64,000 bases of DNA. Source: Escherichia coli. GTDB taxonomy: Bacteria > Pseudomonadota > Gammaproteobacteria > Enterobacterales > Enterobacteriaceae. Below the pieces are notes generated by a model. It did not search any database. It was not told the origin of the DNA and worked only from the letters and a program-made list of their open reading frames with translations. Positions within the stretch are counted from its first letter, which is position 1. Each line of letters begins with the position of its first letter. The stretch lies in NCBI RefSeq assembly GCF_003334815.1, contig NZ_QOWO01000010.1; one strand, given 5' to 3'. The position numbers and the translations under genes were made by a program. Below are positions 55,512 to 56,597 of the stretch, one piece after another.

Positions 55512-55527
55512 AGGCAAACGTTTACCT
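55512..55527. promoter_or_regulatory. PurR box (autoregulatory operator) in purR leader
   Basis: AGGCAAACGTTTACCT matches the PurR operator core GCAAACGTTT. Confidence 0.7.
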
Positions 55528-55571
55528 TGCGATTTTGCAGGAGCTGAAGTTAGGGTCTGGAGTGAAATGGA

Positions 55572-56597
55572 ATGGCAACAATAAAAGATGTAGCGAAACG
55601 AGCAAACGTTTCCACTACAACTGTGTCACACGTGATCAACAAAACACGTTTCGTCGCTGAAGAAACGCGCAACGCCGTGTGGGCAGCGATTAAAGAATTA
55701 CACTACTCCCCTAGCGCGGTGGCGCGTAGCCTGAAGGTTAACCACACCAAGTCTATCGGTTTGCTGGCGACCAGCAGCGAAGCGGCCTATTTTGCCGAGA
55801 TCATTGAAGCAGTTGAAAAAAATTGCTTCCAGAAAGGTTACACCCTGATTCTGGGCAATGCGTGGAACAATCTTGAGAAACAGCGGGCTTATCTGTCGAT
55901 GATGGCGCAAAAACGCGTCGATGGTCTGCTGGTGATGTGTTCTGAGTACCCAGAGCCGTTGCTGGCGATGCTGGAAGAGTATCGCCATATCCCAATGGTG
56001 GTCATGGACTGGGGTGAAGCAAAAGCTGACTTCACCGATGCGGTCATTGATAACGCGTTCGAAGGCGGCTACATGGCCGGGCGTTATCTGATTGAACGCG
56101 GTCACCGCGAAATCGGCGTCATCCCCGGCCCGCTGGAACGTAACACCGGCGCAGGCCGCCTTGCCGGTTTTATGAAGGCGATGGAAGAAGCGATGATCAA
56201 GGTGCCGGAAAGCTGGATTGTGCAGGGTGACTTTGAACCTGAATCCGGTTATCGCGCCATGCAGCAAATCCTGTCGCAGCCGCATCGCCCTACTGCCGTC
56301 TTCTGTGGTGGCGATATCATGGCAATGGGCGCACTTTGTGCTGCTGATGAAATGGGCCTGCGCGTCCCGCAGGATGTTTCGCTGATCGGTTATGATAACG
56401 TGCGCAACGCGCGCTATTTTACGCCGGCGCTGACCACGATCCATCAGCCAAAAGATTCGCTGGGTGAAACAGCGTTCAACATGCTGTTGGATCGTATCGT
56501 CAACAAACGTGAAGAACCGCAGTCTATTGAAGTGCATCCGCGCTTGATTGAACGCCGCTCCGTGGCTGACGGCCCGTTCCGCGACTATCGTCGTTAA
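55572..56597 (+). CDS. purR: Purine repressor PurR (LacI family)
   Basis: 341 aa [36 protein letters not shown]. Confidence 0.97.
55599..55614. promoter_or_regulatory. Second PurR box inside the 5' end of the purR coding region
   Basis: CGAGCAAACGTTTCCA, 27 bp after the purR ATG. Confidence 0.7.

Follow-up and report, generated by a model that had tools for sequence, protein, structure and literature searches.

PurR very probably represses its own gene through two operators, O1 in the purR leader and O2 within codons 10-15 of the coding region, which would act on transcription as two independent roadblocks. Autoregulation of purR through two operators is already known, having been in the literature since 1990, and RegulonDB and EcoCyc both curate it. 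Locus, sequences and arrangement here coincide with those of the E. coli purR O1/O2 pair (Rolfes & Zalkin 1990, J Bacteriol 172:5758; Meng et al. 1990); we are thus dealing with the published element itself and found no substantive difference from it, apart from the second box of the initial annotation, which lay one base out of register. Here we refer to the whole 64 kb stretch of DNA that was analysed as the window, and the features that matter within it are the following.

55403-55408, plus strand: -10 hexamer of purR, CAAAAT, reported as GCCAAAAT at 55401-55408 (Mendoza-Vargas 2009)
55414-55416, plus strand: transcription start site (TSS) of purR, from two published datasets
55512-55527, plus strand: PurR operator O1, AGGCAAACGTTTACCT, in the 5′ leader, at +99..+114 from the TSS and -60..-45 from the ATG
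55559-55562, plus strand: Shine-Dalgarno sequence of purR, GGAG, 9 nt 5′ of the ATG, read from the sequence
55572-56597, plus strand: purR coding sequence, 341 aa, LacI-family purine repressor, supported by the open reading frame, NCBIfam, RefSeq and PDB
55600-55615, plus strand: PurR operator O2, GAGCAAACGTTTCCAC, in codons 10-15, at +187..+202 from the TSS and +29..+44 from the A of the ATG

The gene order in the window (sodB, ydhP, cydH, purR, punR and punC) is that of the E. coli chromosome, and the 1.6 kb around both boxes was matched in 5,425 of 5,426 complete E. coli genomes. The gene at 55572-56597 is purR. Its product scored 711 bits against the NCBIfam PurR equivalog (cutoff 501) and has the same sequence as the crystallised purine repressor (PDB chains e.g. 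1PNR); RefSeq annotates purR at the locus, and the same name is used in 5,425 E. coli genomes. The Shine-Dalgarno sequence lies in a block, 55554-55564, that is fully conserved among 81 Enterobacteriaceae species. At its other end, purR (plus strand) converges with punR (minus strand), their stop codons overlapping in TTAA at 56594-56597, with 4 bp in common and without an intergenic terminator; the same tail-to-tail arrangement was also present at several of the other Enterobacterales loci that were fetched.

Operator O1 was the clearest of all PurR sites in the window. A symmetrised position weight matrix (PWM), built from the 27 non-purR PurR sites of Cho et al. 2011 (Table 1), gave it 21.0 bits, which was the best score in the 64 kb, with the runner-up at 13.8 bits, and any site of at least 21 bits was seen in only 1 of 200 shuffles. 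This score is close to the top of the leave-one-out range of the 27 ChIP sites themselves (7.9-23.9 bits). The first box had been placed at 55512-55527 on the plus strand, reading AGGCAAACGTTTACCT, and it was found exactly there, 45 nt before the purR ATG at 55572 and already in the register of the palindrome; the matrix scan that had been proposed as its check was passed clearly, as the best-scoring site of the window. Judged by its sequence, O1 is an unambiguous and strong site.

The published coordinates agree. Cho et al. 2011 (PMC3159470, Table 1) give the purR motif as AGGTAAACGTTTGCCT at 1,735,808-1,735,823. We fixed the offset between genome and window with the coordinates of Kim et al. 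2012 (purR start at 1,735,868 and TSS at 1,735,710) and with the upstream sequence printed there, and with this offset the motif maps exactly onto 55512-55527 on the other strand; the first box is thus identical to the ChIP-chip motif of purR, which is the outcome of the comparison with published operator coordinates that had been proposed as a check. The peak at purR was adenine-dependent, with its motif at the O1 coordinates (PMC3159470). As this peak is 568 bp wide, with 50-bp probes tiled every 25 bp (Cho 2011, PMC3159470 Table 1), it cannot separate O1 from O2, which are 88 bp apart.

The second box needed more care. That both boxes share the operator core, as had been claimed, was borne out by their common 10-mer, GCAAACGTTT, which occurs in the 64 kb, on both strands, only at the two boxes (expected 0.29 occurrences; at least two matches in 4 of 100 shuffles). 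A consensus search with the 16-mer, allowing up to 3 mismatches, found O1 only, against 0.46 expected by chance, and was not significant by itself; it was dropped in favour of the PWM. The initial annotation had given the second box as CGAGCAAACGTTTCCA at 55599-55614, within codons 10-14. These coordinates and codons are correct, the 16-mer covering codons 10-14 and the first base of codon 15 (R10 A11 N12 V13 S14 T15), but its palindrome register was off by one base: the 16-bp palindrome of a PurR box has CpG at its centre, and the 16-mer in register is GAGCAAACGTTTCCAC at 55600-55615. So placed, O1 and O2 are both 16-bp imperfect palindromes like ACGCAAACGTTTGCGT, with a central CpG.

In register, O2 scored 11.9 bits, towards the lower end of the leave-one-out range (7.9-23.9 bits), and ranked 6 of the 63,985 positions in the window, which is only a marginal pass of the matrix scan. 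Its 10-bp core is perfect and its outer positions are poor. On the matrix it is no better than 4-5 other sites in the window that are presumably non-functional; four further 16-mers, at 24391-24406, 5941-5956, 8668-8683 and 21472-21487, reached 12.4-13.8 bits and are presumed to be chance matches, and the AAACGTTT core is absent from all four of these higher-scoring 16-mers. The chance of a background site scoring at least as high as O2 within 150 bp on either side of O1 was about 0.02. The statement that the operator pair can be recovered directly from sequence was therefore overstated, as the PWM recovered the first box and not the second. O2 is convincing, as a sequence prediction, only when the identity of its core, its proximity to O1 and its conservation are taken together. 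It has also been published: AGGCAAACGTTTACC and GAGCAAACGTTTCCAC are both tabulated at ynhF/purR (b1658) in PMC5110547 (Table 4), where both are said to overlap with the operators described for PurR by Rolfes & Zalkin 1990 and Meng et al. 1990, and the second box is thus among the listed sites of purR.

The position of both sites relative to the promoter bears on how they would work. The purR TSS was placed at 1,735,710, 158 nt before the gene start, in the supplement of Kim et al. 2012, which corresponds to 55414, and the upstream sequence printed there ends ...CCAAAATTCCACG at this position; Mendoza-Vargas et al. 2009 placed it at -156, corresponding to 55416, and their supplement gives the sigma-70 -10 box of this TSS as 'atcgGCCAAAATtcca'. 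All six bases of the -10 hexamer are 90-100% conserved in the 81 species. A scan with the generic sigma-70 consensus detected no promoter in the cydH-purR intergenic region, since CAAAAT matches the consensus too weakly. Both operators (+99..+114 and +187..+202) are located downstream of the promoter footprint of RNA polymerase. At these distances they cannot occlude the promoter, so repression must act after initiation.

Thus, we propose the following course of events. When hypoxanthine or guanine builds up, a PurR-corepressor dimer would bind each 16-bp palindrome; as the sites lie about 100 and 190 bp past the TSS, bound PurR would not compete with RNA polymerase for the promoter and would instead obstruct the elongating polymerase at two successive, independent roadblocks. 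Full-length purR mRNA would be modestly lowered, and this negative feedback would keep the level of the repressor stable. Rolfes and Zalkin reportedly located O1 in the leader and O2 in the coding region, with non-cooperative binding, an O1 affinity about six-fold higher and an autoregulation of two- to three-fold, and He and Zalkin are said to have demonstrated the elongation block directly for purB. For the roadblock step at purR itself, we infer it from the position of the sites and from the analogy with purB, while the occupancy by PurR in vivo and the autoregulation itself are taken from the literature. The earlier suggestion that autoregulation acts as a roadblock downstream of the promoter gains support, with the same proviso on this step, from the mapped TSS positions and from the statement in PMC3159470 (Cho 2011) that at purB and purR the binding of PurR in the ORF blocks elongation, for which the purB work is cited. 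Roadblocking by PurR is also cited in PMC6524683 and PMC4132739.

Several known systems can be set beside this arrangement. The operator of purB (He & Zalkin 1992, J Bacteriol 174:7121), like O2 of purR, is a PurR box in the coding region, far past the TSS, that blocks elongation, and the two genes are grouped together on this point in PMC3159470; purB has a single intragenic site, whereas the repressor's own gene, purR, carries a leader site in addition to an intragenic one. The autoregulation of lacI via lac O3 (PMC3711431) similarly has a LacI-family repressor limiting its own transcript at an operator that the polymerase must traverse. However, lac O3 is at the 3′ end of lacI and the tetramer loops to O1, while PurR is a dimer with its sites at the 5′ end of the gene. 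The PUR boxes of purF, purHD, purMN, purL, purEK, purC and others share with purR the 16-bp palindrome ACGCAAACGTTTGCGT and corepressor-dependent binding of PurR, and the score of O1 is in their range. Promoter-overlapping PUR boxes are generally found between -35 and -10, where they block initiation (PMC3159470), unlike the purR sites at +99 and +187.

Two stretches around the promoter were observed besides the operators. Within the purR leader, about 60 nt at 55427-55487 on the plus strand (+14..+74) are at least 90% identical in the 81 Enterobacteriaceae, which exceeds most of the leader, and a terminator scan flagged a weak hairpin followed by T5 at 55451-55475 within it; no Rfam family was found on the plus strand over 55427-55487. 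This stretch could be an attenuator, a site of another regulator or the result of a constraint on the opposite strand. Just upstream of the purR promoter, at window 55358-55375, the supplement of Mendoza-Vargas 2009 lists a predicted Fur box, TAATGATAAGTGTTTTTA (score 12.0), and sodB lies about 1.5 kb upstream.

Since two operators 88 bp apart bracket the ribosome-binding site and the start codon, they might be thought to be joined by DNA looping or cooperative binding, like lac O1/O2/O3 or gal OE/OI, the more so as the loop-forming GalR is present here by ChIP (PMC5110547). We consider this very unlikely. The centre-to-centre spacing of O1 and O2 drifts across the genera, from 85 to 88 bp, with no fixed helical phase, which makes a phase-dependent loop unlikely. 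PurR crystallises and acts as a dimer and is without the C-terminal tetramerisation helix of LacI. This established dimeric state speaks against a loop, as does the non-cooperative binding that Rolfes and Zalkin are said to have observed; and a loop formed so far downstream would still need to act on elongation.

We compared the purR loci of E. coli and 80 other species, altogether 81 Enterobacteriaceae ranging from Escherichia to Klebsiella, Kosakonia and Franconibacter; the genome scan returned Enterobacteriaceae only, with protein identities of 92-100%. Both O1 and O2 are under purifying selection at the DNA level, their conservation going beyond that of coding or neutral drift, at O1 in the 81 leaders and at O2 in the wobble sites. 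O1 forms a conserved island with variable flanks on both sides, its positions 1-12 being 90-100% identical, and the variants at its 3′ end (ACGT, TCCT, TCGT and others) scored 18.4-23.0 bits in 80 of the 81 species and 13.1 bits in the remaining one. The commoner O2 variant in Enterobacteriaceae, GCGCAAACGTTTCCAC, scored 14.4 bits and is a better match than the O2 of E. coli.

It could be argued that O1 alone is functional, and that the match at O2 is a by-product of encoding the helix-turn-helix (HTH) A-N-V-S-T of a LacI-family protein. The low score of O2 (11.9 bits, rank 6) would agree with this, some nucleotide conservation is expected where the encoded amino acids are invariant, and the first 24 or so codons of purR are somewhat slower at wobble sites than the remainder. 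However, by parsimony on the gene tree of the 81 species, the wobble positions of codons A11, N12, V13 and S14 changed in only 1, 0, 0 and 1 steps, against 5-12 steps each in the neighbouring codons D6, V7, K9, R10, T15, T17 and V18, whose amino acids are equally fixed, and against a median of 13-17 steps per site in those degenerate codons of the rest of purR that encode invariant amino acids. Codons 11-14 (ANVS), with 2 steps, are the lowest 4-codon window of the gene, the next non-overlapping one (codons 16-19) having 16. With almost no change at the wobble bases of codons 11-14, we judged the second box to be real. Two further points stand against a by-product: eight other genera keep A-x-V-S and nevertheless use all four Ala, Val and Ser codons, and the title of a published paper says that two sites are required. 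A coding by-product is thus highly improbable and was rejected on the synonymous-site evidence. O2 is a weak site whose sequence has to satisfy both the operator and the encoded helix-turn-helix.

The control outside the family consisted of purR of Erwinia, Pantoea, Yersinia, Hafnia, Pectobacterium, Providencia, Xenorhabdus and Serratia. All eight genera encode A-G-V-S, with the canonical HTH turn residue Gly12, and not A-N-V-S, and O2 was found in none of the eight. They vary freely at codons 11 (GCG/GCA/GCT/GCC), 13 (GTT/GTC/GTA/GTG) and 14 (TCC/TCG/TCA/TCT), and because the same codons vary there, the frozen codons of Enterobacteriaceae cannot be ascribed to a general translational or structural need of the gene's 5′ end. 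Where O1 would lie, 5 of the 8 genera have a weaker box (A[GA]GCAAACGATTAACA, 9.6-11.0 bits, at -60..-62); the box of Pantoea is ACGCAAACGTTTAACA (13.2 bits, at -62) and that of Xenorhabdus TGGCAAACGATTAACA (7.3 bits, at -77), and no box was detected at the O1 position in Providencia or Serratia microhaemolytica.

Residue 12 follows the same division. Of the 120 homologues listed from the database, N12 occurs in 21 and G12 in 95, a split that follows the identity to E. coli PurR almost cleanly. N12 (codon 55605-55607) was present in all 81 Enterobacteriaceae loci, each time with GCAAACGTTT or a one-base variant, and across the N12 loci retrieved, Asn12 (AAC) was always accompanied by the O2 core or a one-base variant; two divergent N12 loci, either metagenomic or mislabelled, both carry GCGCAAACGTTTCCAC, and one low-coverage metagenome contig with D12 has neither box. 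From these sequences we lean towards O2 being an innovation of the Enterobacteriaceae that would have been possible only via a change from Gly12 (GGN) to Asn12 (AAC), the operator having dictated a residue of PurR and the Ala, Asn, Val and Ser codons having been locked since. Such a coupling of O2 with the change from Gly12 to Asn would be a small and clean case in which a coding sequence and a regulatory site impose constraints on one another. Only this connection of O2 with Asn12 is possibly new here, and it may already have been noted, e.g. by Ravcheev et al. 2002; in a review that cites Ravcheev 2002, Vibrio and Pasteurellaceae are said to be without the autoregulatory site.

The region is also occupied by GalR in vivo, with ChIP-chip and qPCR signals at ynhF/purR, where both boxes were inferred to be GalR operators (PMC5110547), and the outer bases of the right half of O2 (GTGGAAAC, minus strand) fit the GTG...CAC pattern of gal sites. 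That the sites serve mainly GalR or a general cross-talk of LacI-family proteins, PurR being secondary, is nonetheless extremely improbable: little or no GalR-dependent change in expression was seen at these genes (PMC5110547), O1 reaches 21 bits on the PurR matrix and its natural variants shift toward the PurR consensus, and the occupancy by PurR is adenine-dependent (PMC3159470). Part of the constraint on the sites could serve another LacI-family protein, as GalR occupies the region.

There is next to no chance that the palindromes are RNA hairpins, in the purR mRNA or in an antisense 'STnc550' transcript, rather than protein-binding DNA, although Rfam RF02081 draws the O1 palindrome as a 6-bp stem: this family amounts to the cydH ORF together with the entire intergenic region, the TSS of E. 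coli cydH has been mapped only 38 nt upstream of the cydH ORF, and no compensatory change was seen in the O1 hairpin among the 81 species. Position 15 of O1 changed from C to G in 14 of the 81 species with position 2 unchanged, which breaks the pair and raises the PurR score, and the bases at position 13 (A/T/C) and position 4 (C) never form a pair. The leader and first codons of purR fold no better than shuffled sequence (z = 0.07), and base pairing between O1 and O2, as well as any other reading at the RNA level, was rejected.

The match to RF02081 (STnc550 sRNA) is itself strong, at 396.5 bits against a gathering score of 48, and covers 55181-55571 on the minus strand. It spans the ORF of cydH (ynhF) and the cydH-purR intergenic region and reaches up to the base that precedes the purR ATG. 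Rather than an sRNA, the family appears to represent either an mRNA or an artefact of the intergenic region. The locus is of value for calibration in three respects: a matrix scan finds O1 and misses the weaker intragenic O2, O2 is rescued by synonymous-site conservation, and an RNA family database (Rfam STnc550) took in a protein-binding palindrome as a hairpin.

Finally, one disruption of the locus was observed. In the E. coli HB101 assembly NZ_CP178859.1, an IS30 of about 1.2 kb is inserted inside purR at approximately codon 7 (window ~55591), which splits the promoter and O1 from O2 and the remaining part of purR, and the purR coding sequence of this assembly was re-annotated by RefSeq with its start inside the end of the IS.
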